A stretch of 63,709 bases of DNA, filler included, from Reclinomonas americana ATCC 50394 (Eukaryota): assembly GCA_048213135.1 (NCBI GenBank). It is 10 parts of 10 records of this genome, joined end to end, with 100 filler letters (N's around TTAATTAATTAA, not from the genome) between each part and the next. Parts side by side here need not be neighbours in the genome. Positions count along the whole stretch, not along the records: positions 3,319 to 18,025 come from AFZH01017138.1; 9 more parts are not named here. One strand, given 5' to 3'. Position 1 is the first letter of the stretch; every line of letters starts with the position of its first letter. Under the pieces are notes generated by a model. It did not search any database. It saw nothing but the letters and a program-made list of their open reading frames with translations, and was not told where the DNA came from. The translations under genes and the position numbers were made by a program. Positions 911-61,270 of this stretch are shown here, piece by piece.

Positions 911-2492
911 TCATTCGGGGTACAGTTGACGTAATTGAGCGAGCGTACAAGGCGCGTGGGTGATGGGGCACTTCTTCTCCCGCTCCACGTAGTCTCGTGC
1001 ACACCGAGTGCAGAACACAAAGCCACTCGGCAGCGCCGACATCTCCTCGCTTCGCGGTTGACTGCACAGTGCACACAGCGTCGGATCGGTGGGCACCGGC
1101 ATGCCTTGCGCGGCCGGCTGCACGGGTTCCGGTGGTGGAATCGACCGTGCTCGCCGTGAGCGACCCTGTGTAGCAGAATTGTCAGGAGATGGTGGGTTTC
1201 GGCACCATACTGGACGTCGCACACGCACATCGCTGCTGGCGCTCGGATCCGACAGCAGGTCGTACTGCGTCTGCGAAGTGCCAGCATAGTACCACTCGAG
1301 CAGCTTGAACAGGAACGACGAGGCCAGCAGCAGCTCGCGCGAGTAGTCGGCCAGCAGGTAGCCGGCACGGAGAGCGTACGCTACCACACGACTGACGAGG
1401 TTGCCGGAGGCCAGCCGTCGCAAGAATCGCTTGTGCTGGCGATGTCGATCGACCCAGTGGCGACGCTGGCGAAAGGCAGTACGCAGTGAGACAGAGAGGG
1501 AGAGAGAACAAACGGGGTATTAACGCACCATGTCCTCCATCGACTGTCGCTCAATCACCAGTCCCTGCGCGTGCAACGACGGCGAGTAGTACCGCGTGTC
1601 ACCAAACAAGTACAACAACTGATACACCAGCACCGCGCCCTCACAGGCAAACGACGCCACTGGGTACGCGACGACAAAACACCGACGCAGCACGGCGCCT
1701 GCCGACACACACCACTCGCGCACACGCTGCAGCGCACTCGCATCGGCAGCCGCCCGCAGCTGAATCGCATCCGGTCGCGGCACATTGGTAAACACAAAGC
1801 CATCCCACTGCACAGTTGCGGGCGACACTGGCGGTGCCGGAGGTCTCCTCGCCTCCTCCGCCATGCGCTGTCGCTCAGCATGGTACCACCGATCCAGCTT
1901 GCGCCTAATGTACGGCAGCAGCACCAAGAAGAAGAGCGACAGTGTGCGATCCCTCGGCCGCATATGCTTGGACGTCGCCCCCAGCTCCGAGGCCGACACT
2001 GGTGGCGACACTGCGCTGTCCTCATCCTCCGCAGTCGCCATCACCGCTGTTGTTGTGGTGGCTGTTGTCGCCAGTGGTCTCAACACGCGAGTGCGCTTCA
2101 GTCCATACAACTGCTCCGCAAACGATCCATCTGTGACTCGCGATGTGAGGGATCAAGTGAGGACGAGGGCCACAAGAGTGAGAGATGCGCACCGAACTTG
2201 TCGAGATAGAACTTTTCCACGAGCAGCCACAGTGCCGTGAACCACTCGTCGTGATAGCGCAGCAGTGGAGCTGCGCGAGGGGCATGTTGCACAAGCCACT
2301 GACGCATGGCGTGTGTGTGAGAGAGAGAGAGAGAGAGCAAGGCGATGCTTGTGATTTGCATGACGAAACGGAGATGAGGAGTCGCACAGCGGGTTGCACC
2401 GAGGGTGAGAAGCGCGACTGTGCGAACAACTCGAAGAATGTGGGTCGCGAGGCGAGTGCCGAGGTGCCGTACTGTGACAGGAAGAGCGACAT
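911..2492 (-). CDS. PEX12: Peroxin-12 (Pex2/Pex12 N-domain plus C-terminal RING)
   Basis: N-terminal RPTFFELFAQ, then DGSFAEQLYGLKR, LLPYIRRKLD, FLFKLLEWYY and degenerate RING CALC..SGFVFCTRC..CPIT; three introns. Confidence 0.92.
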
Positions 2493-2556
2493 GCGTGCAC
2501 GACCGATCACAAGACGGACTGGGACAGACAAGGACGCGACGCGATGTGCATTGCTC

Positions 2557-3172
2557 TCAACCTCGGCGTTTGGCAAGCAGGTGCGTTCCGAAACCTGCAC
2601 TCTCCAGCACCTCGGCTAGTGACGGAGCCGCGGGTGCTGCTGCTGGCGCAGCTGCTGGTGGCAGATTCGCTTCTTCCACGGTGCTTTCGGCGGTCTCCAT
2701 CTCCACATCGCCCGACGAATCGTCCTGGTGAAAGAGGCGCTTGGTGGTATCCGAGGCCACCGTGTCTCGCATGCGACGCAGACGATCGCGATCCGGCGTC
2801 GACACCCCAGTCAGCATGCGATCGGTCAGACACAGCAACTGCAAGTGGTAGACGCGCTCCTGTGTCGCGGAATCGAGAGTGGCCAACTGTGTGCGCAATC
2901 GGTGAACCAATCTGCGTTTTTCCGACTTGGTGAACCAAACAGAGGAAACGCACCTGATCCGTGCTCATGGTGAGAAGCTGATTGATTTCGTCCAACTGCA
3001 GCGCGTCGACCGGCTGCGACAGCAGCGCAGCCAGTGGTTCCCGGAGTGCGAGGAACTCGTCGGAGGTGAGCGTATGCGATGTTCGCGACGGCAGCGCTGA
3101 AGACATTGCTGCAGGGGGCGCACTGTCCGCATCATAGGCCGGCTCCGGCTGCAGTCCCGGTGCCACGTCCAT
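2557..3172 (-). CDS. Hypothetical protein (probably two exons)
   Basis: ORF from ATG 3172 with a CAG|GTGCGT donor near 2954, continuing into ORF 2557-2910; no recognisable motif. Confidence 0.35.
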
Positions 3173-3218: not shown

Positions 3219-3318
3219 NNNNNNNNNNNNNNNNNNNNNNNNNNNNNNNNNNNNNNNNNNNNTTAATTAATTAANNNNNNNNNNNNNNNNNNNNNNNNNN
3301 NNNNNNNNNNNNNNNNNN
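3219..3318. other. Assembly linker (N run with six-frame stop TTAATTAATTAA); identical linkers at 18026-18125, 22492-22591, 31115-31214, 38400-38499, 45177-45276, 49855-49954, 57534-57633 and 61063-61162
   Basis: Nine identical 100-nt blocks; an artificial contig spacer. Confidence 0.98.
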
Positions 3319-12994: not shown

Positions 12995-14993
12995 ATGCGG
13001 CTGCTCATCTTGTGCCTCGCGCTTGTGCTTGTCGGCGTGTGCCACGCGCTTCCGACGCAGGTGCACTTGAGTGTGAGTGTGGAGGGTCGCCGCAACGAGT
13101 TGTCGGTGACGTGGTTCCACGACGTGTCGAGTGTGAGCGGCGATGCGGCGGTGGAGTGGGGAGTGGCGTCGGGCGAGTACTCGCAGGTGGCGTCGGCGTG
13201 GAGTGCGACTCCGTATACGCGTGGAGAGCCCAAGTGGACTGGCACGGTCTACAGTGCCACCTTGTCGGGCCTCCAGTGTGATGCAAAGAGCGGAGGCGGA
13301 GTTTCGTGCACACGCGCGCGTGGTCTTTCTCTCTGCATGTGTTGTGCTCATTCCCTCTCTGTCTGTGTGTGTGTAGATGCGCTACTGGTATCGTGTGCGC
13401 ACGGCGGGAGAGTACTCGCCGGAGCACACTTTTGAGACGCCGTTTTGTGGTGACTATGATGTGCAGCCGTTCCACACGTTGTGGTATGGCGACATGGGAA
13501 CGTTGCGTCACTGAGCTTTACGCACGCACATATGCACACACGCGCGCACATCATCTCACACCAGCGATAGTGTGAACCGTTCGCTGGCGTTTGATGACAC
13601 GCACTCGTCGCTGGCCTCCATCACGTGGATCGAGAAGGTGATGAGTGGCAAGGTGCCGGATGAGTCGTTTGAGGTGGTCGTGCACGTGGGAGACATTGGC
13701 TATTGTGTTGCGTGCGGCGAGGGTCTCTGCTTGTCAAAGTGCCTGCCGGTCTCACGCCGTGCGTGTGGTGTGTTGGCACAGGATGATGGTGCGTTGCGGG
13801 CCAACCAGACGACCTTCAATCAGTTCCTGCTGGACGTGGAGAATGTGGCGTCGTCGTACCCGTACATTGTGTCGGAGGGCAACCACGGTGAGCGAGGTGC
13901 CACGCCGCTGCGCGCCCGCACGCACGCGGTACTCACATGTGCTCATCGCAGATTCGCATTACGAGCATGCCATGTACCACGAGGCGTTCCGCATGCCCGA
14001 CTGGAAGTCGAGCAAGAACATGTATTTCGCGGTGGATGTGCCGCACGCGCGCTGGGTGTTCTTCTCGGCCGAGGCCGACTATGCGCCTGAGGTGTCGGAG
14101 CAGTGGCGCTGGCTCCGCGACAACCTGCGCTCGTTCCGCGAGGACAAGGCCAATGATGTTGCGTTGTGATGGGTCGGTCGCCGCCTCTGCCTCCAATCAC
14201 TTTCTCACCCAGTGTGTTGCGCATCGCAGGATAAGTGGCTGATTGTGGGCGTGCACCGCCCGTTCTACTGCGCGTCGACGGTGAGCTGCTGTGGATTGCG
14301 TTTCTCCATCATGCGCGCTTTGCTGCTCATCTCGTGTGTGCGCGCAACCAGTGGTCGTACTGCAACAGCACGGGTATCGAGGCGTTGCGCCTGTCGGTGG
14401 AGGGCCTACTGCAAATGTACAATGTCGACGTGGTGATCGCCGGCCACACGCACGACTACGAGCGCATGTACCCGACGTACCGCAGCAAGGTGGCCGGCAC
14501 ATACGCCAAGCCGGAGGCCCCGGTGCATCTCATTTACGGAGCTCCGGGCGATGTGGAGGGCCAGGAGTGGTCCTACCTGGTCAAGGAGTGGAACGCGTAT
14601 CACAGGTACGGTGACAGCACGTGAGTGCCACAGATGGGTGCGTTGTGGAGATTCATTGGTGGGAGATGCGATGTGCAGCGTGCAGCTGGGGGTCGGCATG
14701 GTGTCGATTTACAACTCCACCAGCATCCACGCCCGCTTTGTCGACACGGTGACGGGAGTGACGGAGGATGGCGTTTGGCGTTGCGTGCTTTGACGAACGC
14801 TCTTGTTTTTTCTTTTTGGCTCACTGATACAACAGTCTCTCGCCGAGAGATCAAGCGAACACCGGAGGGTGTTTTCGTTCCGGCCGAGGCGCCGGGCTAC
14901 GACGCGCATGGAGTGCCGCATGTGGACGCCACCGAGTTGATCTCGATGGTGCAGTCGTCACTGGTGCAGAAGATGCACAACAAAGGCCAGTGA
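12995..14993 (+). CDS. Secreted purple acid phosphatase (ACP7-like), copy 1
   Basis: Signal peptide, FN3-like N-domain (QVHLS..VTW) and the five metal motifs GDMG, GDIGY, GNHD, VGVHRP and GHTHDYER. Confidence 0.93.
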
Positions 14994-15155
14994 AGCTGAG
15001 TGGCCCCCGATTGATTCCAGATTCGGTGCGATCCAATACCGGTCCTCTTTCGTATTTCTTTCTTGCTTGCTTGGAGAGAGGAGAGAGAGAGAACAGATCA
15101 CTTCCCCCCACACTCACACACTCTTTGCCTCAAACACTTCTTTTCTTGCCTCATC

Positions 15156-17404
15156 ATGGTCCGCACCATTCCTTTCGTGATGCTCTTTATCGTCGCGGTG
15201 GCAGCATCCACTGCTGCAGCGTTGCCGCCCGGCCAACTTCACCTCGCCCTGACTGGCCAGCCGAATGAGGTGTCAGTGACGTGGTTCCACGACGCCAGCG
15301 ATCCCACCGAGGATGCAGCGGTGCAGTGGGGCGAAGCGTCGGGCGAGTACACGCAGTTGGTGGCCGCGGCCTCAGCCACACCGTACTCGGGCAAGTGGTC
15401 GGGCACTGTCTACAGTGCACTCATGAGCGGCCTGCGGTGTGCGCCTGCCGGAGAGGGTGGAGTTGCGTCTTGCATGGAAGGAAAAGAGGGAGAGAGAGTT
15501 GTGTTCGACAACTGCAGCAGTCTGAATCTGGGTCGTCTTCTTTCTCCTTGTGAGATTCTTTGCTTCTTCTTTTGCAGAAGAGAGTTGATTGGCATAGAGA
15601 TGCACTGTGCAATGGAGTTAGCAGCGTGGGGCGACGAGCTCGAAGTGCGATTCGCCAATCGTGCAGTGTCAGTCTAAAATTGATTGTCTGCATGTTCGGA
15701 AACTTTTTAGCTGCTGCTGCATTGTCGCAGTGAGGGGTACCAAGGCAGAGACAATGAGAGAGAGTGTGTGTGTGAATTGGTGTGCTGTGCGTCCCCGCAT
15801 CTCTCGTCTGACGGAAACCATTTCCCCCCTCGCGCAACAGGTGCGGTACTGGTACCGAGTGCGTACGGCGGGAGAATATTCGGTGGAGCGAACCTTCGAA
15901 GCTCCCCTGTGCCACGACTACACGAAGCAGCCGTTCCGCTCACTGTGGTACGGCGACATGGGAACGTTACGTCTTTGTATGTCGACTGCCTGGGCAACTC
16001 CGACTGCTGCTCATCATCCATGTACAGTATCAATCGAGCGCTGCCGGCCGACGACCAACACTCTGCGTTGGCGACTGTGTCGTGGATCGAGTCGGTGATG
16101 CAGGGCAAGGTGCCGGGCGAGTCGTTTGAGATGGTGATGCATGTGGGCGACATTAGCTACTGCGTTGCGTACTGCTGCACTTGTTGTCTCTCCCCGCTTG
16201 CGTCGGGCTCACCGATGGGCACGACAGGATGAGGGCGACAGCAAGTACAACCAGACCATCTTCAGTCAGTTCATGGTGGACATGGAGAATGTGGCATCGT
16301 CGTACCCGTATCTGGTGTCGGAGGGCAACCACGGTGCGTGCTGCTGCTGCTGCACGTCTGTCAAGTCCGTTTCCTGATTTTGCCGTGCCCAATAGACTCC
16401 TTCCACAAGCACGCCATCTTTGGCGAGGCCTTCCGCATGCCGTCGTGGTCGACCACCAAGAATCTCTACTACAGTGTGGATGTGCCGTTCGGGCGGTGGG
16501 TTTTCCTCACGGCCGAGGAGGATTACACGCCGGAGGCGTCGGATCAGTGGAAGTGGTTGCGCACTGAGCTGCGCACATTCCGCGAAGACCAGGCCAACGA
16601 TGTTGCGCGATGACAGCCTGCTGCTGCTGCGCAGAGTAATGTGCCTGCTCACTCACTCTCCATGTGCAGGACAAGTGGTTGATTGTGGCCATTCATCGCC
16701 CACTCTACTGCTCGTCATCTGTTGCGCATTACCGTGCCGCGTTAACGCAGCATCATATTGTCGGCCTCTCACGCAAGTTGTCTGCAGAGCTCGTACTGCA
16801 ACAGCACCTCGAACGAGTCGGTGCGAGTGTCGCTGGAGGGCCTGCTTCAAATGTACAATGTGGACGTGGTGGTCTCCGGCCACACGCACGACTATGAGCG
16901 CACAAAGCCCGTGTACCGCGGCAAGGTGGCCGGCACGTACGCTCAGCCGGAGGGCCCCGTGCATTTGGTGTACGGCTCTGCCGGCGGCGTGGAGGGGCTC
17001 GTCAAGCAGCAGAGCAGTGTCGAGTGGGACGGGTTCCACAGGTGAGAAACTGATGACGACCATGATGAGATCGGCACAGTTGTGCTGATGTGTGTTGTCG
17101 CGCAGCATCGAGCTCGGCGTCGGCATGGTGTCAGTGTACAATTCGACGAGTATCAACGCTCGCTTCTTCAACACGGTGACGGGCCGTGTCGACGACGACG
17201 CGTGGAGTTGCGTCTGTGGTGCACGCTCGGATTTAGTCGCGAGTTTTTACTTACGGTCATTCGTTGCACCTGCCTGCAGTCTCGCGGAGAGCCATCAGCA
17301 GAACTGCTGAGGGAGTGTTTGTGCCGGTGCCGGCACCAGGGTATGACGAAAAGGGACGGCCAATCGTCGACAGGGAGCTGAGTGAGCGCATGGCCAGGTG
17401 GTGA
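15156..17404 (+). CDS. Secreted purple acid phosphatase (ACP7-like), copy 2 (tandem paralog)
   Basis: Same motifs (GDMG, GDISY, GNHD, VAIHRP, GHTHDYER) and the same intron positions as copy 1; stop TGA 17402-17404. Confidence 0.93.
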
Positions 17405-18125
17405 ATGTTAGAGGCGAAGGAGGATGCGCTGCGCAGCAGTGAAGCGGTGGTTGTACAGTTTTGTTTACTTGGGTAAGAGCGTTGTGGAGAAGGGATCGCA
17501 GAAGGCATGAGTGGTGACAATGACGGCATGTCATGGTTTGGTCAGTGGTGTTCGACCTCGCTGCTGCGATGCAGATTGCATACTGCTGTCGAAGCTCCGA
17601 GACCGACGACGCCTCCTCTTCTTTGCTTGCTTCACGGCTCCGGACCCGGCTTGCTTTGGCCTTTCCCCAGATTGGATGTGCCGAGTACGACTGCAGAAAC
17701 GCAGCGTTGCGCATGCGTCTGTGCAAATGCGTCAAATATGTTCAGCCTCGAGAAAGCCTTCCAGCCAATGCCCAAGAGTGGTGTTCGTGTTACTCATCAA
17801 GACAGCTGTTGCAGTTGCAGTTGCATTTGATTTGATTGTTGGTGAATGAACTGCTGTTGCTGCAAGCGCAGAAGCCGCGGTCCGGCGCCGGTGATTTGCA
17901 GGCAGCAATGGGTACGTTGCCTGACAACGCAAAAATGCCAGCTGGGTCAAAAGTCAAGGAGTTCGAAGGGTATACCACATCGAACAGGATCTTGGAAGAT
18001 TTGCCCAATTCCACCTCCGCCACTGNNNNNNNNNNNNNNNNNNNNNNNNNNNNNNNNNNNNNNNNNNNNTTAATTAATTAANNNNNNNNNNNNNNNNNNN
18101 NNNNNNNNNNNNNNNNNNNNNNNNN

Positions 18126-21100
18126 CCATTCTCTTCCGGTTGGTGGACGAGCTCGCCGCTCAAGCGGCCTCTCGCGCCATGGCCAACACCGTGTACGACA
18201 CGCTGCTGGCCGCCTTCCTGGACAATGTGCACAACAGCCGAGTGCGATCGTTCTGCCTCGGTCACTTTTGGAACACGCTCAAGGCGTCGTCGGTGCTGCC
18301 ACTGGCCAGCCTTGTCGATCCGCTCATGCGTGAGTATGCCTCGCTGGCCGTGTCGGAAACCGACGTGGCGTTTGTTGCCCGACTGGTTGGGCACGATCGT
18401 TTGAGTTGCGTTTGTGTCGTCTTGCAGTTTTGTCACGTGCGTGCCTGACTCGTGTCGTCGTCGTCGCCACAGGCCTGGACTCCGCCATGACCATCTTGCG
18501 TTTCCTGTTTTCTGTGATTACGGGCAAGGCCGAAGCCGACGACGCCACCGTGGCCACCGCCATGCCGGCCCTGCTCAAGAGCATCCAGGCCAACTGGCAG
18601 CAGCAGCAGTGCATTGTGGTGGTCGACTACGCTGTGCGCGACGCCGGCACGCTGTACGTGTCGGCACTCAACTCGCCACAATGGTCCTCACCGGTGGCGA
18701 CGCCAACCACCAGCAAGCGCACTTTGAAGCTGCTGGCGGCACTCGCCGATCTCGAGATTGTTTCGTACTTACTCTCTCTCACACCTCTCGCTCTCGTCTC
18801 GTGTTCCTGACTGCGGCTCGCACCTTGCAGCGCGCCATCACGGACCTCCTCGTCCCCGTGGTGCGCACCATTCTGCACGGCATCCCGCAACCGGAGCCCG
18901 CCCTGTTCAATCTGGCGTCGCGTCTCAACGTGTCGCCCCGGAGTGTCGCCGGACCGATGTCGTCCAATGGTGGCACATTGGTACGTGCCGCGGATCATCA
19001 TTTCATGTTATTTAGCGTCTTGCTGAGTTTCTGCTGCTGCTGCTGCTGCGCAGGAGTCGCCCATGAGCGACGGTGTCGTGTTGGATGCGCCGCCGCCTGC
19101 GCGCAAGTCCACCTCGCCACGACGCGGGCGCTCACATCCGACCGGCGTCGGCGACACCGACACCTCGTCAGCCTCGCCGCGTCGGCGCAATCTCGGTCAG
19201 AGTCGGCTGCCACATCCGGGTCGCAAGAGCGACGGCGGCGTCGTGCAGCAGACGCAGGGGGAGGAGAGTGGCAGTGTGAGTCCGCTGCATCGGAAGCCTG
19301 CGTCCGACTCGAGCGTTCATGACATCGAGAGGCCGCGCAAGGTGTGTGTGCTGTCGACCAATTGTTTTCTCTGGTGTCGTTTCACTGACCTTGCGCGCAA
19401 CAGCTGTACCACGCACCGCCGGCGCAGATTCACGAGCGCGAACGTGCCATGATGGATCACATTCTGGAGCAGCGGCGGAAGCGGGCCGAAGACCGTGCAC
19501 AGGCCGAGGAAGAGAGACGGCTGCGCGAGGAGCGCATCAAGAAACAATTGGATCGGCTGCGAAAAAAACAGCAGCTGGCGTTGCATCCTATGGTTCGTTC
19601 GCCGTCCTCTTGTCCCTCAACAGTGTGTGCGCTCATGAACCCTCGTTGAATGCAGGAGGCTGGCGGAGAGGAACAGGCGCAGTTACCGGCACATGAGCGC
19701 CTGTACAAACGTGCCATGCTGCAACGCGACAAACTCCATGGCAAGAAGGGCGGTCAGGTGTGCCTTCGATCCTCTTCTGTGCTTGTGTGCCGTGTTGTCG
19801 TGGCCTGATTTGTTGAATTGCTTGCGTCAAGGCATCGAGTGGCGACGAGGAGGCAGAGGCTGCGAGTGGTGATGACGAGGAGCGGGGAGCGCCCAACGAA
19901 AGCTTCGAGCAGTCGGGTGACGAGGGAGAGGCGGATGAGGCCGCTGACGAGGAGGAGGAGGAGGAGACGGAGGACGAATCGGCCGATTATGTCGCCGAGA
20001 GTGTGCTCTCCTCCATCTTGCAAGACGTCACTGGCGACGACGATCACTGGGAGTTCCCGGCGCAGCGTCGTCACCGAGAGCAAGCTGAGCGGCGGCTCCA
20101 GGCGCGAGAAGAGCGCAAGCGACAGCGCCATCGCAGCAAGTCGCCGCCTGTGCCAAGCGAGAAGAAGAAGGCCACCAAGGCGAAGCGCAAGAGCAAGGGT
20201 GGCGCTTCCGGCTCGACCGAGAACACGCCCACCAAGACGGTAACGTCGCACGCGCGCGCTCGCTCGCGTGTGTGTATGCGATGTGTGTTTGGAGCTGACT
20301 GAAGAGAGTGCGAACAGGAACCCGCGGCACCCCGTGTCGCTGCGAGAATCAAGCAGCTGTCGGTGTCACCCGGCTTCTTCCAGAAGCACCGCGAGCACTC
20401 GCGCGGCAATGTCATGTTTATCCTGAGTCTCCTGACTGATGTGGTCGACAGTGTCGTCAGCGGCGAGTTGCGTCTCCGCACACCCATATTTCCTTGCGTC
20501 TCTTTTTCCTCCTCTCCCCCTCACTTTGACAAATGCGTCTGCAGAGCGCGTGCACGACTCGGCGAGAAGAAGAAGAAGCCAAAGAGGAAGGACAAGGAGT
20601 TGTCGACGAAGCGCCCGCCAGATATTGCACCGGTGCTGGACACCAAGTCGAAGATTCCAGAGAGCGAAAGCGCAATTATCGCGCACCGGAAGCGTCTGGA
20701 GGAGGAGCGTGAGCAGGAGGAAAAACGCCGTCAGAAGGAGGAGAAGAAGCGCGAACAGCAACGCGAGCAGCGCAAGAAGGAACTCGAGTCCATGCTGCAG
20801 GAGCAGCGACAGCGCAAGGAGGAGGTTGGCTTGTGTGTCCCCCAGCCTGTCGCCGCCACACGCACTCACTCTCTCTGTCTCTCGCACAGGAGGCCAAATC
20901 GGCGGAGGAACGTCGCAAGCAGCTGGAGCAGGCCCGTAAGAGCAAGGAGGAGAAGCGGCAGCAGGAGCTGGTGGCGTGGCGCGAGGCCGAGAAACAGCGC
21001 ATCCAGTCGCACAAGGAACAGACGGAGGAGAAGAAGCGGCAGGAGGCGGAGGAGGCCAAGAAGAAAGTTGCGCGCACGTGTGAGGCACAAGAGAGACAAT

Positions 21101-21780: not shown

Positions 21781-22440
21781 TGGGAAGTGAGGCGAAAGAG
21801 GACAAGGAGAAATGAAACGGTGGTGGAGAGAGAGAGAGAGAAGAGAGAAACGGTAAGTTGAAGGGGAATGGGAAGAGAAAGGGACACCGCACGGGGAAGG
21901 GCGATAAGAAAGAAACCATGGAAAGGTAGCGAGTGAGAGAGAATGGAGAGAGAGAATCAGTGATTGGAGAAAATGAGAAAGTAGAGGGAGATGATTCGGG
22001 GAGAGTGGAAAGTGGGTGGTAAGAATAACAAGGGGATTTGTGGTTGGAGAGATAGAAGAGGAAGAGGATGAAAATCAAGGGAGGCAGGAGAGCGAAGTGG
22101 CGAGGAAGTGAGAGCGGAGAGGTGAGATTTAGTGGAGAGAATGAGAAAGTGAGAAGAGAAGTGTGCACGGGGATGTTGGTGAGGAAGAGAAACAGGGAAG
22201 AGAAGGTTTTGAGAAAGGAGACATGGAGTGAGAAAGGAGAAATGGAGTGGTGGCTGAAGAGGTAGTGAAAGGGGAAGAGAATGGAAGAATAACAGGAGAG
22301 AGAGAAAGAGAGAGAGCAAGTGAGAAGTGTGCACGGGGAAGTTGGTGAGGAAGGAGACATGGGAGATAGAGAGAGAGAGAGAGAAGAGAGAGAGCTATGA
22401 GTGGAGAAGAAGAGAGTGTGTGTGAGAGGCAGAAGAGAGA
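21650..22440. repeat. Purine-rich (GA) low-complexity tract, probably intronic
   Basis: Begins at a CAG|GTGAGG donor near 21650; almost all A/G, with GAGA runs and an internal imperfect duplication (GAGAAGTGTGCACGGGGA near 22157 and 22322). Confidence 0.8.
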
Positions 22441-22591
22441 TCAACCGTTTGCAGACTAGTGGAAAGGTTCCTCGTCACTCATGTGCATTTCNNNNNNNNN
22501 NNNNNNNNNNNNNNNNNNNNNNNNNNNNNNNNNNNTTAATTAATTAANNNNNNNNNNNNNNNNNNNNNNNNNNNNNNNNNNNNNNNNNNNN

Positions 22592-23040
22592 GGAGGAGGA
22601 GGAAGAAGAAGAAGATGGTGTGCGCTGGGACGAGGCAGTTGGCGCGCTGGTCCGCGGTATTGCGGACTGTTTTGGTGCACTGGTGGCGCGTGTTGTGGAG
22701 ACGATGGTTGTTGTGAACTGTGAGGAGAGGCCGACATGCGAGCAACTGCTGCGTGACGGTGTGTTTGCAATAGCAGCCATTGGAACTTGGGCCTCAGCAG
22801 TGCAAGCGGTCGGTTTATCTGACGGCGCTGAACTCGAATGACGACGCGCTATACGCGTCTCCGTGGATTAAGATCTTAACTGCTCTGGTGGCAAGTCTAG
22901 TCAACGTCTGGCAGTCGATCACCATCTCACCGGGAATGTCGCTGACTCAGCAGCTGAGTGGTGCGGTTCGTGCGGGCGGTGTCATCGCATCTTGCTTGAG
23001 CTGCGCAATTAAAGAGATCAAACAAAACAAAACTGTTTAA
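22592..23040 (+). CDS. 3' fragment of a gene, possibly a protein-kinase C-lobe end
   Basis: VVETMVVVNCEERPTCEQLL resembles kinase subdomain XI (RPT..ELL); the rest lies in the gap. Confidence 0.3.
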
Positions 23041-23055
23041 TATGTTTGTTTTCTC

Positions 23056-26000
23056 TTACAAGTTCGCAAATTGCGTCGGGATAATCTTCTTGCGATTTCT
23101 CGTGTTGTGACTTGAAGGAGATAGTGCGGTAAGAAGCGCACTGTCACGCCTAGCGACAGGCGAGGACGCCGGCCCGGGTTCGCGATCCGTCATGCCCGGG
23201 TAGTGTACTCGGTACAGCATGGACGTACGACGGCTGGCGATAATTGATGTTCTTCTAATCTGCGTACTCGGAGCGCTGCTGTCGTCAATCAAGCCACCCT
23301 GCACGACGAGCCGCGACAGCGTCTTGTTGATGCCACAATCCAAGTCGGCATCCAGCATGTTGAAGACGATGCGCTTGCTACCAAGAGACGGTGGACCGTC
23401 ATGTTCAGTTGACCGTTGTGGCGAGTTGTCCCCGGCGCTATGATCGCCACCACCAGCACCACCGTGGAACGGCTCGTCGCGGCATACAACGTCACTGAAA
23501 GTCACACCAACATGAGCCGAGTCACGGTCCGGATCCGTTGTGTCCAACGTGACCTTCCGTGCACCGGCGGCGGTGCCACCGTCGCCGTACACAGCAGAAG
23601 CACGCCGATGGCCGAAGCGGGGAGTAGTGGACGAATGGCTCGCAGAGTTTCTCGGGCTCTGCACGCCGGCTATGTGTACCGTGAGCGGCACAGAGGAGCG
23701 TCGAGTGTGCACAGATCCAGAGCCTTCGGACGGGCTCTTGTGCACGGTGCTGTGGTGGTGGTGGTGGGCCAAAAACTCCTCCCGTTGCAATTCTTCATAG
23801 TCGCCGACGCAGGTGAGCATGTTCCAGCCTTCCAGCAGGCGCTCCTGGAGTACTTCAGGGAGGATTTGATAGACTGCGACAAACAATGAAATGATAAGTA
23901 GAGTGGCAATGAGATCGGAGTAGGCAGCAGCGCAGAGAACTCACTGTGCATCACTTCCGCAACGCCCTTGAGGGACATGGGCCCGGCATAGTTGACGACC
24001 ACTGGTATTTCTAGAGCCAGGGTTTTGTTTGGATTCTGAGGCACAGCAGCGAGATACGGTGTGATGAGAAGTGGGTGGACGAGAGAAGCAATTCATCGCC
24101 ACGACGACGTAACTCGGGGAAGTTGACTGAGGAACTCATCTGAGACGTGCAACATGCCGCCCTTGGCTGTCCCGGCTACTCGCGCACCGCGATTAACGAC
24201 TGTTCCGTAGTAGTCGAGGCGCCCCATGACTTCGTCGATCTTCCAAGAGAGCGCAGCGAGTGAGAGTGAAACATCACTGAGAGAATGCAAGTGCATGTAA
24301 TTGTTAAGACTTAACCTTGTGCATCACTTCGCCAAAGTGAAGACCCATGCGGACACTGCGGCGTGACAACATGAGTGAGAGTACAGGGAAGAGAGATTGG
24401 CGGCGACCACACAGACCGGAGACCGCGGTAAATTACTCCGTATTTTGGTGTTTCCACAATGTCGCCTGCGATGCAAAGTGAGGAAAACTTTCCCATGGAG
24501 TTAACCCTGCTGTTGTCGGTGATGCGCAACTATATCTGAGTTTGTAGAGAGCTCGTGGCCACGGTGCCTGTTGACGTACGCGCAGCGTATACGAGTGAGC
24601 AGATAATAACCAACACACTTCTCCATCTCCTCCTTTTGCGTCCACTTCCAGTATGCACATGTACAAGCTCCTTCTTCCTTCTTCTTCATCTCTTCTATTT
24701 CTTCTTGTTTCTTCATCATCGTCATCTACTCCTCCTCCTCCTCCGTCACTGTCTTTCTCCGTTGCTGTTTCTTCCTCTCTCATCCTTGATAGAGATACCT
24801 TGACTAGCGCGAGTTGCACTTCGAGAGCCCAGTGAATGGCATCTAAGGGACTTGCGAACGAGACCATGAAGGCGTCACCTACACATGACACACCATCAGT
24901 ATAAAAGCTTCTGTTTTCTGTTTCACGAAGAGTAATGAAAGGAAGAAATATTGCCAGTCACAAGTACCCTAAGTAAAGATAAAGTCATGTTGTGACAGGG
25001 AAACTAAGAACGCGACAAGAGTTGTCAGCGATCACTGACTACACGCACAAAACCGAGAGAGAACTTGCATTGATCAGCTGACTCTATGCATATTTGTGCA
25101 ATGGCACGTTGTGTCCAGCAGAGATCGCAAACATGCTACCGTATCAATCATACCTTGATAATCAGCTTGACTACAGTGCGTTCACAACTCTCTACTTCTG
25201 GCATACGTAGGGTGATCACACTGCAACCAATGCGATAAACACAAGTCTATTCCACAAAAACGGCTTCTTGATGCTTCTTACGGTACCTTCTTTCTCGTTC
25301 ACACACCTTCCGTCTTGACTTCAAATCCATTAAACTCGCGCAGGCATCGACGAACAATGCGATGGTGCATCTCAATGCAGAACAGCATGAGCTCCGTGTC
25401 GGTCTCCCACAGTGCAGTGGAACCTGTGGGCTCAGGTTAGTTGGCAACGAGGAGGGAAACTCGAAAGTGATAAGTTCTGTAGCTGCTGCTGACACTTGAT
25501 GGCTCTCACTCACACTGTAATATGTAGCGAGCATTCTATGTGTGAGACGAGTGGCATTGAGAAACACCGCAAACCTTCGATATCCTATGTGTTGACAAAG
25601 AGATGCATATGTGCACGCGGGATCAGGAGTTGTACAGTGAGTAACGCAGGGCAATCAAAACACGAACATGTACACATTGTGCACGCAGCAGGCCTTACCG
25701 TGAATCCCACAGTAATCTGCAGCCAATGCAGTGAGTTGAGCATCACATCAAATCAAACAACCTTGCCCTCGTTTCCCCAACGAACCGCTCCTTTCGGTGC
25801 CTTGTCCAGCTGCATGTAGTACTCGCCTTCAGTGTCCTTTCCATAAACTTGAACCTCGTGCTCCTCATCTCGGAGAGTTTTGCGCGAGTACAAGAAGCGC
25901 AAGCCAAACAGGAACATCGTGCAGTTCACATACGTCCATCCAACGACTAGCAGGGCGGCAAAAATCTGGATACCCACCTGAGCCCCACGATTGCCAGGAG

Positions 26001-28926
26001 CAACGCCAAACACTGCGAAGCACGAGAACGATGACAAAGGTTTGCACGACGCCCGAAACCAATCGTAATTTAAACCTGCAGTAACGCGCGCATCGGAGTA
26101 GCAGAGGCCAGCGGCGGTTACACCCCACAAGCCTGCCCATCCGTGCACTGCCACAGCGTCCACGGGATCTGCAGACACACAAGTACATGTAAGTGTCAGA
26201 CATGTACGTTGTCAAGACCACCAAGATCTAGAGTGGTGTACAGTACCATCGACGTGCATCTTGCGAGTGAGCCACTGCCGTCGGACGAGAAAGAGAGAGA
26301 GCTGCATTAGGAAACATCGAAAGAATGATCGCAGGGGAGATCAACTACAAAAAGACTAACCGAGCCACCCAGGTACACGAAAGCCGCAACAGTGCCAATG
26401 AGTGCTGCCATGTGTGGCTCAACAAACGCGCAGCCTGCATTGACGGCGAGGAGGACACCATAAGCTCCCTCCCTCACTCTTGCCGCATGCCGTACACGGT
26501 TGAATACATGATCACGCAACATGGAGTGACGGCTACAAGACCTCCGAGGCTTGCATTCATCATGATTCCAATGTCATAGCGTCCACGCAAAAGTCTGTGC
26601 ATACAACGACACTTGCAATGAGTATGAAAGAATTCTCAGAAGTGGAAACAGTTGCGCTCAACGCCCTGCGCTCTCTCTGTCAGGTTCCGTAAAGTGCAAC
26701 TGATCATGAAGCGTTGACGATCGAGCGCTTAAAGACTGAGCTGGTAACTGATCGCAGTCTATTCTTGTTTGCTTGTCGCAGCACGTGATGAGCATATCAC
26801 CAACCTTGGCATGAAGACACCCACAAAGGTGGCAGCCGAGCCCGCGATCATGGTGTTCACTGCAGCCAACGAAGCGATGGTGGACTGTGTTTCCCCCGGC
26901 GCAATGGTCACCGTGGATCCCGCATTAAACCCCTGCGACGAGGATAGTAAACGCCACTGTCACCGCAGGCGTACGATTTGCACTCCCGGTTGAGGAGGAT
27001 CAACACATACCAGCCAACCGAACCACAGAAGGAAGCAGCCGAGCACCAGGTGGATCTGCTGCGTTTTGGTCCACTGTGCCCGCACAAGCTCAAGAGTAGA
27101 GTCGGTCTGCGGTGGTGTGCGTGTGAAAACAAGGAGTGAGTAAACGTGCGCAAAACCTCGCGATTGCCAATGTTCACAAACCGCTCCACCAATGTCCAAG
27201 GCTACGTTTTCCATCGCAAGCGGCGCATCCGCGCCTTCATTGTATGTGTCTCCCGTGCGTTCAACAGGAGCGACAACAGGCATTTCAAATGTAACGCCGG
27301 GTCGCGGACCGACCGTCTGGGCATCGATAAGAATAGTATGCAATTTAGTTTCTCAGAGAACAGAAGCAAGCAACCGGCAAGGGAATCACCTTGGCGCCAA
27401 TCAGCGCTGCCACACCACCGACCAGGTGCACAGGGCACCCGCCCGCAAAATCGAGAACAAAGTAGCCGCCAAGTGGTCGTGAAGAGGCGGGTGCCGATCT
27501 GTGAGATTCGCAGTCAGTACACTCACGATATTCGTGCTGCTGCTCCCACTCACCCGCTCAACCAGCCGTCTACACGCACGGTCACAAACAAGCAAGCAGC
27601 GTGTGAGAGTTGCGGCATGGAGGAAACCCACGAATTACTTCTGTCATGTGTAACGCACCTCGCGACCACAGCCAGTGCGCCACAGCCGAATAGATCCACA
27701 GGCACACGTAGAAATGGAAAGAGAGGTATGTCTGCACGACCTGTGAGCAAGCAGTCGAGACACAAAAATGGACTGCAGACGTAACTGAAAACTTTGTTCG
27801 CTCCTAAAACGGGGAAAACAGTTTTGCGAAATAAGAACAAACAACACCCCCTCCCCTACCCACACACACTTTCTCAGTCACGCAACTGCCATGGCGCCAG
27901 AGACAATTGTGCCCTGCGCGCACACGTACAGACACAAAGGGACGAGTGAGATGGTCTGGCGCAGGTATCGTTAGAACAGTTGTAGTCTGCTCGGAACTGC
28001 GGTAGCGGAAAAGTGAAAGCCGTAGAGCCACACCACCGCGTCAGTCTTGCTCGTCGGTATCTGAAACACATGACGAATGTCATAGCCCAAAAACCCGTTG
28101 CCACCTGAACAGCTATTTAAGGAAAGCAGTACAGACTGTATGTAATAAAATCTCAATGCACGCAACTCGAGTATGCAAACGCATAGCCGGCCAGCCACCA
28201 GGCGACCAATGTTACACAGCCATTCACGTAGTTCTTGAGCACAATCAAGTGCACTCCGCGTCGAGCGCACGCAGCCTGTGCGTGTCAGATTGAGCGTGTG
28301 TGTGTTCGAAACGGCAAACTCTGCCTGTGCTGCGCATCGTGTGATCGCCAAACTCTGCACAGCCCACGTATTTTCTCTGTCGTTCTCTTGCTCGAGTCTC
28401 ACCTCAAGCAACAGAAAGCCGGTTTGCATGAGAAACACCAAGGCTCCCGCGAAAAACACCCACTGCATGTTCACGCACTCTCATGAGACACACACACACT
28501 GCGCATGCACGCGCAGACACACACAGTGCACAGCGCAAGCGTTCTTCACGCACTGTCGTGTTGATTGACGTGATCAGTCCCTCGATGGTGGCCTCCGCTG
28601 AGAGAGCAGCAGCGGAAGAGGACGTGAGTGAAGGAGGTTCGCGCATAAGCACACACACGCACAAAATTGAACGGCGAAAAAGGGAGATCTTGTTGGGACA
28701 CACACAGGTGGAGAGTCGTCGTTGTAGGTTTTACACGCGCACCTGTGCTTGATCGCGGAAGGAAGGCGGACTGTTGTGCGGCGACTGGCCATGCATATGG
28801 AGACAACAAGTACGAACAGGTGAACACAGCGAAGATCGCGAATGAGATAGAGAGAGTCTTACCTCGATGAATGCTGCATAGGAGGAACACTGTCAGAGGG
28901 ACAAGCGTCCTTGTGACGAGCGACAT
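23056..28926 (-). CDS. Ammonium transporter (Amt/Mep) fused to a class III adenylate cyclase
   Basis: Amt: VFLMQTGFLLLE, WWLAGYAFAY, TIVSGAMAERTKF, YSAVAHWLW, LDFAGGCPVH, LLWFGWLGFNAGS, DDPVDAVAVHG. In-frame linker APKGA leads to the cyclase: ITVGFTDIEGSTALWE, EVKTEGDAFMVSF, GLRVRMGLH, GRLDYYGTVVNRGARVAG, SLKGV, VYQILP. Confidence 0.88.
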
Positions 28927-28987
28927 GCCTGCGCGCAGTGTGCGCTACTTAAAGAAGAATGAAATTTCAATAGTTGTTGGTACACGC

Positions 28988-29161
28988 ATGGAAGATGAGA
29001 GTGTGGGCGAGTCTGCTGCAGCTGGAGTGAGTGGGAAGCGTGCGCGGGATGCCTCTGAGGATGATACGGGTGAAGACGAGCCGCCACAGAAACGACAACG
29101 CACTGGTGCGTGTGTGACACAGTCGAGGCACGACCACAATCATCTCTCTCACTCCTCTCTG

Positions 29162-29210
<49 letters not shown>

Positions 29211-31114
29211 CTTGTTTTGTGATTGGGGTGTGTTCGTCGCACATAACAGGATCATCAGACGAGTTGTCAACAAGTGGTTCGCCAACTCTCATCTCCGCTC
29301 TTCTCCCGTTGTCGAACAACACTCACGCTGTGACGTTGTTGTCGTGTGTGGTGTCGACAGAGCTGTTCAAGGAGCGCTCAAACCTCCGTCTTGAGAACGC
29401 CATCCCACGCGACGTCATTGATCGTTATGTAAATCATGTCAACACTCTTTGCGTGCACGCTGCACACACGGCGCTCACGGTCACTCTCTGCTGTGTCGTA
29501 GATCACGTGGCAGGCTGGATTCCCAACGATTCGGGTCTCTCCCCCGATGGTAATGCTAACCTTGCACAAGCTGGAATTGTGCTCAGCAGAGCCGACTTCC
29601 CCGCTGATGGTCAGTGGCAGATCGATGCATGTCCTGAGTTGCAGGCGATCAAGAGCGCATTCGAGAACAGGTAAGCAAGAATCGCTCTCAGGTGGTTTCG
29701 ATTCTACACGCGCAGTGACTGACTGTTGGATGTGTTGCAGTGCCGGTACTGATGCGGTGTACCGCCAGCGATGGTGAGTTGATTCCATCGACTCGTTGCT
29801 CTCGAGTGTGGCGCGCTGATGGTGGAATGTGCTGGGTAGTGCGGCGGCAATGCAGCTGCTACCTGGTGCTCCGAATGCAATGCCAGCACCGGCGGCAGGA
29901 CCAGCTGTCGCCGACGAGCAACGTGCTTTGCTACCTGGTGCGCCGAATGCAATGCCAGCACCGGCGGCAGGACCAGCTGTCGCCGACGAGCAACGTGATT
30001 CGTGGGAGCAGAATATGGAGAGCGTGCTCCCATACCAGGAGTTCCGCTCTTGGTGTCCGTCGGCGCTGTTCCAGCGCTTGCCCAGGGTGGCTGGGTTAGC
30101 TGAAATGCCTCTTCAAGTGCTAACGACAGCAGCTGTGCTGAATTTATGTTTGGTGAGTGCTTCGTTGATTAGCAGTTGCAACACGTCTCGCTCTTGTCAA
30201 TCACGGTGCATCTTGGTGCGCAGCATGCGAACGAATCTGTCCAAGTGCTGGGCAATGCAAAACTCCCTTGGTTGTACGGCCTCACGGCTCCAAGACCGGA
30301 CCTGCAAATCCGTCGGCTTGACCCAGAGAACTCTGTTCTCATCGGCGAGATCAAGGCCAAATCCACAAACGAACAACAGCAACACACGGACAAGTTCAAG
30401 CTTCTCTTGCAGATGGCGTACGCACTGTGGGCGCGATCGAAGCGCGTGCGGAACGACGAAGAGCTGCGCCAGCAGCGTGTTTATGGCTGGCTGCAGTTCG
30501 GCGCAACTGTACAGTTGCTGCAGATGCGAGCTGTACCTGTCGAAGCAACTGTTGGTGGAAAGCAGCAGAAGGTGTGTTTTGCATCCGTGTTGTTTTCAAG
30601 GTGGTGCATAGCGGTGTGCTGATTTGCTGATTTGCAGACGACACTGTTCGTGTATCATCTCGTTGATGAAAGCAGCTTGGCTCCACTCCTTCCGTGGACC
30701 GTGGTGCGATTTGTTCTCCTGGCATTGCATGAAATATCACGACAATTAGGCGGTCCCGCACCACAATGGCGACCCGCCCCGGCACTTGAAGAGCTGGTTC
30801 GAAATCAGTCCAAGATGACGCCGGTATTGTGGATGTGCCCCTTTGTTTCATCATCGCTATTGATGTAATCGACGCTGATAGTCTGTCGATCTCTTGCAGT
30901 CTGAGAAAAATAGACAAGGTGCAGCTGGTGGCACGACGACTGTCGCTGCTGATCAACCACCCACTGCGGCTGCTGGATCGGGAGGGCCGGGCGTCTCCGA
31001 GTCTGCTGTCATGGTCAAGACAGTGCAGGTGGACTTCTCAAGAGCGCGCCTCGTGCACGGAAAACCCATTGAGGTGGCAGTGCTTGAGGTGAGCGCGCAC
31101 GAGAGAGAGAGAGA
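28988..31114 (+). CDS. Hypothetical protein with NLS-like N-terminus and PD-(D/E)xK nuclease-like motif; 3'-partial
   Basis: N-terminal KRAR..PPQKRQR; RPDLQI..VLIGEIKAK followed by helix ..QMAYAL and VYGWLQFG; multi-exon. Confidence 0.5.
29857..29997 (+). repeat. Near-perfect 72-bp tandem duplication (24-aa unit LPGAPNAMPAPAAGPAVADEQR)
   Basis: Two copies start at 29857 and 29929, with one mismatch in the aligned part. Confidence 0.95.
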
Positions 31115-31214
31115 NNNNNNNNNNNNNNNNNNNNNNNNNNNNNNNNNNNNNNNNNNNNTTAATTAATTAANNNNNNNNNNNNNNNNNNNNNNNNNNNNNN
31201 NNNNNNNNNNNNNN

Positions 31215-34200
31215 CGTTTGGCTTTGCGGCGCGTGAATTCCTGCGTCACTTGTGCCCCGTGGGCCAGCGCGTGCGAGTGCGTGTCGACTGGCAGACCGAT
31301 GCTCGTCACGACTTTGGCACTCTGTTTGTCAACGGAAGCACCAATGTCGCCTGCGAAGTGAGTTGTCTCTTTTGCCTTGCAAATGTCGCGACATGTCCTT
31401 TTTGTTGTTTGACACGTGGCGTGTGTGTGGTGCAGGTCGCCGCCAATGGATTCGCTCGTGTTCGCTCGCCCTACGAGAACCGTGTCTCGCCGTTGCGTGT
31501 GTGTATGTGTGCTTTGGGGTGCTCGGAGTGCATGGTGGTGTGCACATGGCGCTCACGCACTTGTCTCGCGCGCAGTGACTACGAGAACCTGGAGCAGTTG
31601 TTCCAGACTGCACAGGCTGCGGGGCTCGGCATGTTCACCAAGGACGAGAGCGCTCTGGCCTCTGCTGTGCGACAGATTGAGTTCCCCACTGAGGCTTCGG
31701 TTGTCGAGTTGTTCAACCGGATCAAGGGCTCACCGAAGCCAGGTGAGGAGCGCGCGTGTGCTCTGGCACTGATCTCACCACTGATTGCCTTGCTCTTGTG
31801 TCTGCAGTGTGCGTTGAGGCTGTGCTCAGTGGCAACCTGATTCGCGTGCAGCTGAAGGGCGCCACCAAGTACTACATGCTGCTGGTGCAATTCACCGGCG
31901 TGCAATGCCCGTCGGCAAAGGTGGAGGCTGGCAAGGCACCAACGCGGTTGCAGCAGATTGGAGCAGAGGCGCGTGCATTCACCGAGTCCAAGCTGCTGCT
32001 GCGCGACGTGCACATTTCCTTCGAGGGCTTCGAGCGCGATTTGCTGGTGGGCTCCATTGTCGGCCGCGGCCACACCTTCTCCGAGGAGATTTTGGCGAAT
32101 GGTCTCGGCAAGTGCGCCGACTTCAACATGGCCAAGACGCCGTTTGCTGCTGCTCTGAGGGCAGCCGAGCGTCGTGCCAAGGAGGGTGCACTGCGCATCT
32201 GGGAAGACTACGTTGCGCCCGTGTCATCGTTGCCAGCCGGTTCCATGTCGGAATTCACAGCGCAGGTGTGGGTTCTGCTGGCGCACTTATGTCGCTGCGC
32301 CGTTGCGTGCGTCTCTTGTAACACGTGTCGGGTGTGCAGGTGATTGAGATTGCGGGAGACACGATTGTGGTCAAGGTCGGCAAGCAGGAGAAGCGAATTG
32401 CTCTGGCCTCGATTCGTCTGCCGCGCCGCGACGAGGACTACTCGTATGATGCCAAGGAGTTCCTGCGCAAGCGCCTGATTGGCAAGACCGTGCACGTGTA
32501 CTTGGACTACTCCCGCAAGCCGCAGGCGGCTGCCGAAGGCGAGGGCTCTTCGTCGGCTCCCCCTGCTGGACCGCGCTCGCAGGAGACTCGTCTGTTCTAC
32601 ACAATGACCACAGAGGAAGGGTGAGGATGCTTTGGCGGCGCATATGTGGTGTAGGTTTTCATGTGCTCACTTTTTTTTTTTTTGGCGTTACAGCGATGTG
32701 GGTGAGGCGCTGGTGCGTGCTGGCCTGGCCAAGGTCATTCGCCACGGTGGTGGTGAGGATCGCTCTCGCAACATTGATACTCTGTTGGCCGCCGAGGAAC
32801 AGTTGCGTGGTGTTGCACTGGCGTTGTACCCGCGTGGTTGACAGTTGCCGACCTGCGATGCTTTGTGTGTGTGTGTGTGTGTGTGTGTCTGTGTGTGTGT
32901 CGTGCAGAGCCAAGACGCAGCGCAAGAACCTGCACAGCAACAAGGCGGCACCGAAGCACCGCTTCAAGGATCTGACGACTGTTGCGTCCTCCCAACCCTC
33001 TGTGCCGTTTGCGCCGCACGAGATCTCACCCAGCGGGTGCACAGCGCGGCGAGTCGGCTGGCGCGAACCGAAAGCACTTGGAAAAGGTCAAGGAGCTGCT
33101 GCCGTTCTTCACTCGCTCCAAGCGTCAACCAGCTGTGGTCGAATTCTGCTTGTCTGCATCACGTTTCAAGGTGTTCGTGCCGAGCCAGAACAGCATCATC
33201 ATCCTGGCACTGGCTGGTTCGTTCTGTGGCTGGAGGTTGTCATGTGATGATGGTGGTGGTAGCCGTGCCAAACTGTGCGTGCGTGGTGTGGTGTAGGCAT
33301 CCGAGTTCCTGCGTTCTCCCGTGGCGGCCGTGAGGCAGAGCCTTTTGGTGACGAGGCTCTCAGTTTTGTGCGCGAGAATGTGCTGCAGCGTGAGGTTGGT
33401 CGGCGCTCGTGCCTTGCGTGTGGCTTGCGTGCGCAGGTTGCTCATTTACGTTCGCAGGTGGAGGTGGAGATTGAGGGCGTCGACCGCGGTGGCTCGTTCC
33501 TCGGCTACCTGTTCTTCAACCGCTACCTGAATCTGAGCACGGAGCTGCTGAAGAATGGTCTGGCAGAGACCTACGCCGCGGCCGCCGAGCGCAGCCACTA
33601 CAGCGAGGAGATGTTTGGTGCCGAGACCGCTGCACGCAACGCCAAGCTGGGAGTGCGTCGCGCTTTCTTGACAGCCGTGTGTTGGTTTTCCCTGTGGATG
33701 TGACCCGGTGCTGTCGCAGGTGTGGAGCGTCGATCGTCCAGACCGCGAGCAAGAGACCAACGGTCGTGCAACTGCATTTGGACCGCGCGGATTGCGTGTG
33801 GCCACGGATGTGTCGTTCATTCCAGTGCGCGTGCAAGAAGTGCCGAGCTGCAACTCGATGTACGTGCACTTGCTGGACGCCAATCTGGACTACGGTGTGT
33901 CGTGGTGTTGGATTTTTTTGCGCATGTGCTTGTTCCTTACTGTGTGACGTTTGGGGTGAGCAGACTCTGCGGTGGCCAAGTTGGAGGCGACGCTGGAGGA
34001 TTTGCGAGCAGAGTGCGGCGCGCATGCTGAGGGTGCACTTGCTGGTCAGCTGCCCGACCCTCGAGTTGGTCAGCTGTGCCTCTCTCGCTTCTCGGCTGAC
34101 GGTGCCTGGTACCGCGCCAAGATTACCAAGATCGCTGGCGGCAAGGCCGACTTGCTGTTTGTGGACTACGGCAACGTTGCGCACCCCCACGAGAGTAGTT

Positions 34201-45131: not shown

Positions 45132-45276
45132 CTGTGATTGATGAGTGAAGAATGGATGAGCCAGCCAGCCAGTGCGNNNNNNNNNNNNNNNNNNNNNNNN
45201 NNNNNNNNNNNNNNNNNNNNTTAATTAATTAANNNNNNNNNNNNNNNNNNNNNNNNNNNNNNNNNNNNNNNNNNNN

Positions 45277-46101: not shown

Positions 46102-46133
46102 AGCGATCGATCCGAACATTTGCCGTCCTCTCG

Positions 46134-61269: not shown

Positions 61270-61270
<1 letters not shown>

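Follow-up and report, generated by a model that had tools for sequence, protein, structure and literature searches.

The window analysed here is a stretch of 63,709 nucleotides, filler included, from the genome of Reclinomonas americana ATCC 50394 (assembly GCA_048213135.1), and the subject of this report is a tandem pair of purple acid phosphatase genes within it whose sixth introns begin with two different kinds of 5' splice site. Both genes could be read as in-frame GT..AG splice models (Table 1), and they lie 163 nt apart, intergenic gaps in the window being very small. Exon 1 matched the PF16656 domain (Pur_ac_phosph_N) at 31.4 bits in copy 1 and 40.9 bits in copy 2, with a cut-off of 30. 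The Metallophos match of exon 7 was weak, at 17.0 and 17.6 bits with single exons submitted, which is under the Pfam cut-off of 21.5. In the protein atlas, the phosphatases point to the Metallophos and Metallophos_C clusters. Both translations contain GDxG, GDxxY, GNHD, HRP, and GHTHDYER-like motifs, which we take to be the motifs of purple acid phosphatases. The two proteins are identical at 293 of 464 positions (63%), and all eight introns occupy the same positions in the coding sequence, with phases 0, 2, 0, 1, 0, 0, 2, and 1. All 16 introns start with GT and end with AG, and their removal restores the conserved open frame. The interiors of the paralogous introns were not alignable (z of -0.85 to 1.5 versus shuffles), and the four-fold sites of the two copies are 55% identical. 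The duplication is therefore old, and whatever the introns retain is constrained.

Two classes of donor are distinguished in what follows. Class A is G^GUG(C/A/U)GU and class B is H^GUUGCG(U/C), where the caret marks the exon-intron boundary and H is any base except G. Intron 6 lies after HRP(F/L)YCxSx in both copies, with a class A donor in copy 1 and a class B donor in copy 2. A preliminary description of this DNA had read these donors as ACG^GTGAGC at 14281 and TCT^GTTGCGC at 16721, and this is borne out by the sequence and by the in-frame models. Inspection of the sequence revealed no other in-frame GT able to serve the intron 6 acceptor in either copy. A branch-like CTCAT precedes the CAG of this intron in copy 1, the 3' end of which is GCGCAACCAG, and a branch-like CTCAC precedes the CAG in copy 2.

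At the other shared introns the donor class was said to be retained, and it is. The class is kept where the exon-terminal base (position -1) stays non-G, as in intron 8 (ggc^GTTGCGT at 14780 and gga^GTTGCGT at 17207), and overall seven of the eight pairs keep their type, namely five GTT-type pairs and two GTR-type pairs with G at -1. In the two genes together, GTT-type donors follow a non-G base in 11 of 11 cases and GTR-type donors follow G in 5 of 5. According to the codons, the -1 base is free to vary synonymously over all four bases at introns 1 and 6 only. The paralog pair therefore gives exactly one informative change, which is coupled to a change of class and agrees with the single switch event noted earlier. 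The coupled change of the -1 base and the class is real, but its description as compensatory coevolution could not be sustained, since a single event that lacks an outgroup does not demonstrate coevolution.

Copy 1 intron 7 contains a second in-frame donor, cac^GTGAGTG at 14621, 15 nt from the donor at 14606, and its use would add five residues. The alignment with copy 2 favors 14606, and 14621 is possible as an alternative donor. Copy 2 intron 1 is 379 nt long compared to 76 nt in copy 1, far above the median of about 70 nt. With exon 7 as the query, a word-index protein search gave no match, and a metagenome scan gave a single match (L001), a 43%-GC intronless contig of bacterial type that is useless for polarizing the switch.

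Introns were predicted throughout the window using a gene finder that applies dynamic programming with codon log-odds, a score for CAG and the branch motif, and intron length. The first pass was donor agnostic and yielded 140 introns, which unsupervised two-class expectation maximization divided into TGCG(T) (33%) and G(C)G(T) (67%). A donor model on intron positions +3 to +8 was added in later rounds, and the exon side was never scored. The final set after iteration consisted of 139 predicted introns in 23 kept genes, those with a coding score under 30 having been dropped. Microsatellites of the (GT)n type are frequent within introns, e.g., at 32802-32907 (plus strand) and 59760-59838 (minus strand), and they mislead donor prediction. 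Ten predicted donors start with GTGTGTGT (preceded by T in seven and G in three), and these were left out of the class A count.

Among the 139 predicted introns, the base at -1 was A in 15, C in 11, T in 11, and G in none of the 37 GTTGCG donors. The 57 GTRNG donors were preceded by G in 43 cases, T in 6, C in 4, and A in 4, and the difference in -1G between the two groups is significant (Fisher p=7.6e-15). When the phosphatase genes were excluded, -1G was found in 0 of 28 GTTGCG donors versus 39 of 52 GTRNG donors (p=6.6e-12). Matched for phase, 12.6 of the 37 class B donors would be expected to have -1G, and the probability of observing none is 1.4e-7. With the amino acid controlled, none of the 20 phase-0 class B exons has a last codon with a final G, compared to 3.4 expected (P=2.4e-3), and the rare codons AAA and GGA (three times) end such exons. 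For donors starting with GTT, -1G was present in 13 of the 17 with G at +5 and in 0 of the 37 that read GTTGCG. Counted over both strands of the raw window, GTTGCG[CT] has 83 occurrences, of which 36 are predicted donors, 6 lie inside sense exons, and 6 are preceded by G. The two classes are mixed within single genes, including both phosphatase copies. In this sample the class B rule has no exceptions, and the class A rule, though strong, has some. The functional constraint that had been proposed for the paralog pair is thus upheld, in that the donor type is kept in seven of eight pairs although the interiors are unalignable and the relation between the -1 base and the class holds window-wide.

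Table 1. Phosphatase genes and their introns, and other genes with homology- or paralogy-supported junctions (positions in the window; caret, exon-intron boundary)
Feature	Position	Strand	Donor	Class or description
Purple acid phosphatase copy 1	12995..14993	+		9 exons, 482 aa, in-frame GT..AG splice model
Copy 1 intron 1	13301..13376	+	gga^GTTTCGT	B with one mismatch
Copy 1 intron 2	13502..13564	+	aac^GTTGCGT	B
Copy 1 intron 3	13707..13781	+	tgt^GTTGCGT	B
Copy 1 intron 4	13888..13951	+	acg^GTGAGCG	A
Copy 1 intron 5	14158..14229	+	gat^GTTGCGT	B
Copy 1 intron 6	14281..14351	+	acg^GTGAGCT	A; 71 nt, phase 0
Copy 1 intron 7	14606..14678	+	cag^GTACGGT	A
Copy 1 intron 8	14780..14835	+	ggc^GTTGCGT	B
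Purple acid phosphatase copy 2	15156..17404	+		9 exons, 469 aa, in-frame GT..AG splice model
Copy 2 intron 1	15462..15840	+	gga^GTTGCGT	B; 379 nt
Copy 2 intron 2	15966..16027	+	aac^GTTACGT	B with one mismatch
Copy 2 intron 3	16164..16227	+	tgc^GTTGCGT	B
Copy 2 intron 4	16334..16395	+	acg^GTGCGTG	A
Copy 2 intron 5	16602..16669	+	gat^GTTGCGC	B
Copy 2 intron 6	16721..16787	+	tct^GTTGCGC	B; 67 nt, phase 0
Copy 2 intron 7	17042..17105	+	cag^GTGAGAA	A
Copy 2 intron 8	17207..17279	+	gga^GTTGCGT	B
SND1	31215-34818	+		homolog P0008, 371/797 identical; alignment spans four class B junctions
Strumpellin	40973-45176	-		homologs P0001, 409/654, and P0002, 489/955 identical; no indel at five class B junctions
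Three tandem FR47/GNAT-like acetyltransferase genes	45277-48831	+		each with an -AKL C-terminal end
Oxidoreductase	52536-54973	+		alignment to intronless-type homologs spans both class B junctions

We counted 24 class B junctions that are free of indels in the alignments, and the -1 base is non-G in all of them. These comprise 11 junctions in the phosphatases, 2 in the acetyltransferases, 5 in strumpellin, 2 in the oxidoreductase, and 4 in SND1. The supported donors of the standard register have -1G in approximately 28 of 32 cases. The oxidoreductase class B junction ..F^VDVSTPLSIQ is the same as in the homologs, and a fifth class B junction of SND1, at 32212, lies within a variable-length linker. 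In the acetyltransferase genes, the intron after ..D(D/S)(K/-)W has the donors tgg^GTCTGC at 45598, tgg^GTTCGT at 46977, and tgg^GTGAGT at 48334, with -1G and the standard register in all three copies. At the intron that follows CA, the donor is GTTGCG in two of the copies (47155 and 48517). The first copy reads ca^GCTTTGT, with no GT, and may have a GC donor, skip an exon, or be decaying. The gene finder merged the first two acetyltransferase genes.

A shift of the predicted boundaries could in principle create the same pattern. If the class B introns were slid by one base (NG^UU...AGN^), all donors would have -1G and there would be no switch, and wrong gene models would likewise remove it. 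The base that follows the intron in the next exon is G in 18 of the 37 class B introns, so the messenger RNA is identical either way, and the other 19 introns acquire no stop codon when slid. Codon log-odds do not discriminate between the two placements, and the slid model always places a G in the codon, which biases the test. However, sliding would violate the GT-AG rule at the two ends of each intron, and CAG directly adjoins the exon in 33 of the 37 class B introns, as it does in class A. At 32981, the standard placement gives R, as in the closest SND1 homolog, whereas the slid placement gives G. For phosphatase intron 8, L/I results from the standard placement, compared to R/S when the intron is slid. 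Junctions also align to homologs without indels. We consider an artifact of boundaries or gene models to be very improbable.

When class B donors were scored with the class A matrix (positions -3 to +8), the score was +4.25 bits at a shift of +1, compared to -5 to -25 bits at other shifts. The G at +1 of class B corresponds to the G at -1 of class A, the U at +2 stands in place of the class A +1 G, and positions +3 to +7 of class B (UGCGY) correspond to +2 to +6 of class A. Position +7 of class B (T.76, C.19) mirrors position +6 of class A (T.67, C.19). This comparison shows class B to be the class A motif displaced by one base into the intron. The same relation is seen in the intron 6 donors, which match at five of seven positions (G.UG.GC), including the minority C at the last, when aligned with a one-base shift and at two of seven when aligned unshifted.

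Beyond the donor, the two classes are similar. The branch motif YTSAY was found in 50 of 57 class A introns and 31 of 37 class B introns, at a median distance of 21 and 16 nt, respectively, from the 3' AG, and the branch-like forms CTCAC, CTCAT, and CTGAC are common to both. The intron lengths are also close, with medians of 71 nt in class A and 68 nt in class B. These features suggest that the two classes may be processed by the same machinery.

The abundance of GTTGCG[CT], with 83 occurrences versus about 19 expected from base composition by our own arithmetic, would be compatible with a repeat or introner origin, in which a mobile element terminating in GTTGCGY gave rise to these introns and the paralogs differ through independent insertions. 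However, the information content of class B introns is approximately zero past +7, and similarity between introns is limited to microsatellites. As nothing is common past +7, the class B motif is a signal and not the end of a repeat, in agreement with the preliminary description. Furthermore, the positions and phases of the paralogous introns are identical though their interiors are saturated, and class B introns occur at conserved protein positions in five unrelated genes. An origin from repeats is extremely improbable. The sequence GCGCAAC(C)AG, which is complementary to the core of the class B donor, terminates three introns (at 14341-14351, 15829-15840, and approximately 19393-19403, plus strand). 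Of the three, copy 2 intron 1 alone also has a GTTGCG start, and its ends could pair. A coupling of the 5' GTTGCG with the 3'-terminal CGCAAC was judged to be a coincidence, with only one of three such introns having a GTTGCG donor.

The explanation that we favor, with moderate confidence, is that the two classes are probably two registers of one motif and that intron 6 changed register between the paralogs. The RNA or RNAs recognizing G-N-U-G-N-G-U would bind in either of two registers, and cleavage would fall before the first GU of the motif, whichever the register. Starting from G^GUG(A/C)GC, the insertion of one U after GU and the replacement of A by C at the following variable position would produce GUUGCGC, and a synonymous exon-terminal change (ACG to TCT) would complete the conversion from class A to class B. 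The reverse conversion would follow an equally short path, and the insertion or deletion of a U after GU would be harmless within an intron. Because a one-base U indel after GU and one or two substitutions suffice, the paralog switch is easy to reach. Mechanistically, a register switch is a better description than compensatory coevolution.

Several points weigh against the two-register explanation. Most of the 139 introns are gene finder predictions, and the intron boundaries are predicted from reading frame, paralogy, and homology. At least 3 of the gene finder's 14 calls of class A with a non-G base (42680, 54850, and 46973) are wrong by homology or paralogy, each having a -1G alternative, and class A with non-G at -1 does exist, as in gaa^GTGAGTT at 31358, where the homolog alignment is clean. 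The paralog switch is one event without an outgroup that would order the changes. The +1 G of class B pairs with C9 of standard U1 in only 1 of 37 donors, so the shifted register is not the predicted optimum. Lastly, a register shift alone leaves the exclusion of -1G (0 of 37, and not mere dispensability) unexplained.

The predicted pairing with the standard U1 5' end (nearest-neighbor, duplexfold) was -6.6 kcal/mol for class A and a mean of -1.0 to -1.6 kcal/mol for class B. As standard U1 folds without the shifted register, the register idea needs a nonstandard reader, and this could be U1 with a nonstandard 5' end, a second U1-like RNA, or U6/U5. The base at +5 of class B is C, whereas standard U1 would prefer A, and the raw window counts for GTTGNG[CT] are 83 for C, 27 for A, 23 for T, and 7 for G. 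We also compared 1,024 variants of U1 positions 4 to 8, using energies that are heuristic, favor G+C-rich variants, and are taken solely as a prediction: the standard sequence comes 88th in binding class A and 944th in binding class B, the variant AUACGCACCUG (GC at positions 5 and 6) is the best for class A (-10.05 kcal/mol) and also binds class B (-7.18 kcal/mol), and the variant AUACGCAACUG is the best for class B (-11.36 kcal/mol).

These predictions bear on the plain compensation that had first been proposed, which would imply that standard U1 binds in the standard register, that stronger positions +3 to +6 offset the lost -1G, and that the two sides coevolve. The rule linking the -1 base to the class holds in the window, and anticorrelation between -1 and the intron side is known to be general among 5' splice sites (PMC11732430). 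However, GUUGCG mismatches U1 at +3, +5, and +6 in the standard register, and the predicted pairing is about -1 kcal/mol versus -6.6 kcal/mol for class A. In addition, the two motifs are related by a shift of +1 only, and compensation predicts indifference to -1G rather than 0 of 37. The form that would be expected, H^GUGAGU, is rare here, with one homology-supported case (31358). Plain compensation is therefore improbable.

A second dedicated reader of the 5' splice site, either a U1 variant or a U11-like small nuclear RNA (snRNA) complementary to GUUGCGY, would create two insulated systems with a common branch site and 3' site, intron 6 having moved from one to the other. This is consistent with the nearly invariant heptamer and its C at +5 in place of the A preferred by standard U1. 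The rank of the standard U1 5' end for class B (944th of 1,024) and the predicted energy of the best variant, AUACGCAACUG (-11.4 kcal/mol), point in the same direction. Strict exclusion of -1G could then be understood as a means of escaping standard U1, as a -1G on a class B test site shifts the predicted standard U1 binding from -0.6 to -4.5 kcal/mol. In contrast, the branch motif, length, and CAG are common to both classes, which mix within single genes, and an Rfam scan of the window gave 0 matches and no snRNA gene. One hypothetical U1 (AUACGCACCUG) is predicted to bind both classes (-10.05 and -7.18 kcal/mol), and the exact one-base relation of the motifs is more economical with one reader. 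We regard a second dedicated reader as unlikely.

Under the two-register explanation, the exclusion of -1G still needs a cause. A G at -1 should only help binding, and none of the single-reader affinity models that we could conceive explains the exclusion. The exclusion favors two insulated readers or a later step (e.g., the U5/U6 hand-over) that rejects G^GUUGCG. We tentatively suggest, as a doubtful but definite proposal, that the reader may be an altered U1 (the universally conserved ACUUACC to an ACGCACC-like sequence) or an extra U1-like snRNA complementary to GUUGCGY, that a quarter to a third of the introns may form an insulated class that excludes -1G, and that introns such as intron 6 may hop between the classes by a one-base indel.

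The host of the window is a compact, intron-rich, flagellated eukaryote whose GT-AG introns are short (about 70 nt at the median) and carry the branch motif CTSAY. The loci at 38500-39258, 57668-63709, and 911-3172 (all minus strand) include genes for a radial-spoke head and axonemal dynein heavy chains, and the organism is therefore flagellated. The -AKL tails of the acetyltransferases look like a peroxisomal targeting signal, and a Pex2/Pex12 gene together with these tails points to peroxisomes. The G+C content of the window is approximately 58%. The region from 21800 to 31200 has a lower G+C content (49 to 54%) and nearly no confident gene predictions, yet contains several GTTGCG motifs. 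About ten contigs make up the window, separated by linkers of the form N44-TTAATTAATTAA-N44 at 3219-3318, 18026-18125, 22492-22591, and six further positions. Genes are cut at these joins, as with the dynein heavy-chain pieces at 57668-63709 (minus strand).

The significance of these observations lies in the implied two-register system and not in the single paralog event. Whether U1, U5, or U6 underlies the seesaw between -1G and the intron side is an active question, and a genome with a near-exclusive one-base register difference could separate the readers. Paralog pairs such as the phosphatase copies are ready-made minigene substrates. Gene finders with a single donor model will misannotate approximately a quarter to a third of introns in this lineage. 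If the 5' end of U1 is indeed altered, this would be a rare exception to an RNA sequence that is among the most conserved in eukaryotes.

The phosphatase genes share the PF16656 N-terminal domain with purple acid phosphatases of the metallophosphoesterase superfamily. For the splice signal, the gene family is irrelevant, and the genes only provide the paralog pair. U12-type introns have the 5' motif RTATCCTT and the branch motif TCCTTRAY. Like class B, they combine a long, rigid intron-side 5' motif with no need for an exon-side G, and they occur alongside ordinary introns in the same genes. An assignment of class B to this type was rejected, as its donor reads GTTGCGY instead of RTATCCTT and as it shares the CTSAY branch motif of class A and lacks TCCTTRAY. 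We found no description of GUUGCG or GTTGCG donors in the open-access literature, in which sequence logos are not searchable as text, and a search of that literature for shifted-register splice sites and snRNA returned nothing on such a genome.

Shifted registers of pairing between U1 and the 5' splice site in humans were reportedly described by Roca and Krainer in 2009, according to summaries in citing papers. In these summaries, the +1 shifted register is found at rare human sites, where every pair is moved by one position and cleavage still occurs at GU, and a +2/+3 bulge register is also described (PMC4856993, PMC9311317). An example oligonucleotide of the shifted register, ACA/GUCAAGUAUA, likewise has a non-G base at -1 (PMC4856993, Table 2). 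In the human +1 register, the first intron G replaces the exon -1G, as in class B. However, the human sites are rare and have long complementarity to standard U1, whereas class B accounts for 37 of the 139 predicted introns and is predicted to pair only weakly with the 5' end of standard U1, whatever the register.

[quoted passage not shown] The human sites show the same anticorrelation between -1G and the intron side, with two separable classes within the same genes. In contrast, the intron-side class is GURAG in humans and GUUGCGY here, which does not conform to //GURAG. The human classes overlap, whereas those in the window are near-exclusive on one side (0 of 37 with -1G). Moreover, the -1G class here retains the +5 G, and one motif is offset from the other by a single base. 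What is seen in the window has features of both the shifted U1 register and the seesaw without fully fitting either. The intron 6 and class B case represents the known seesaw between the -1 base and the intron side in an extreme and lineage-specific form that is nearly exclusive.

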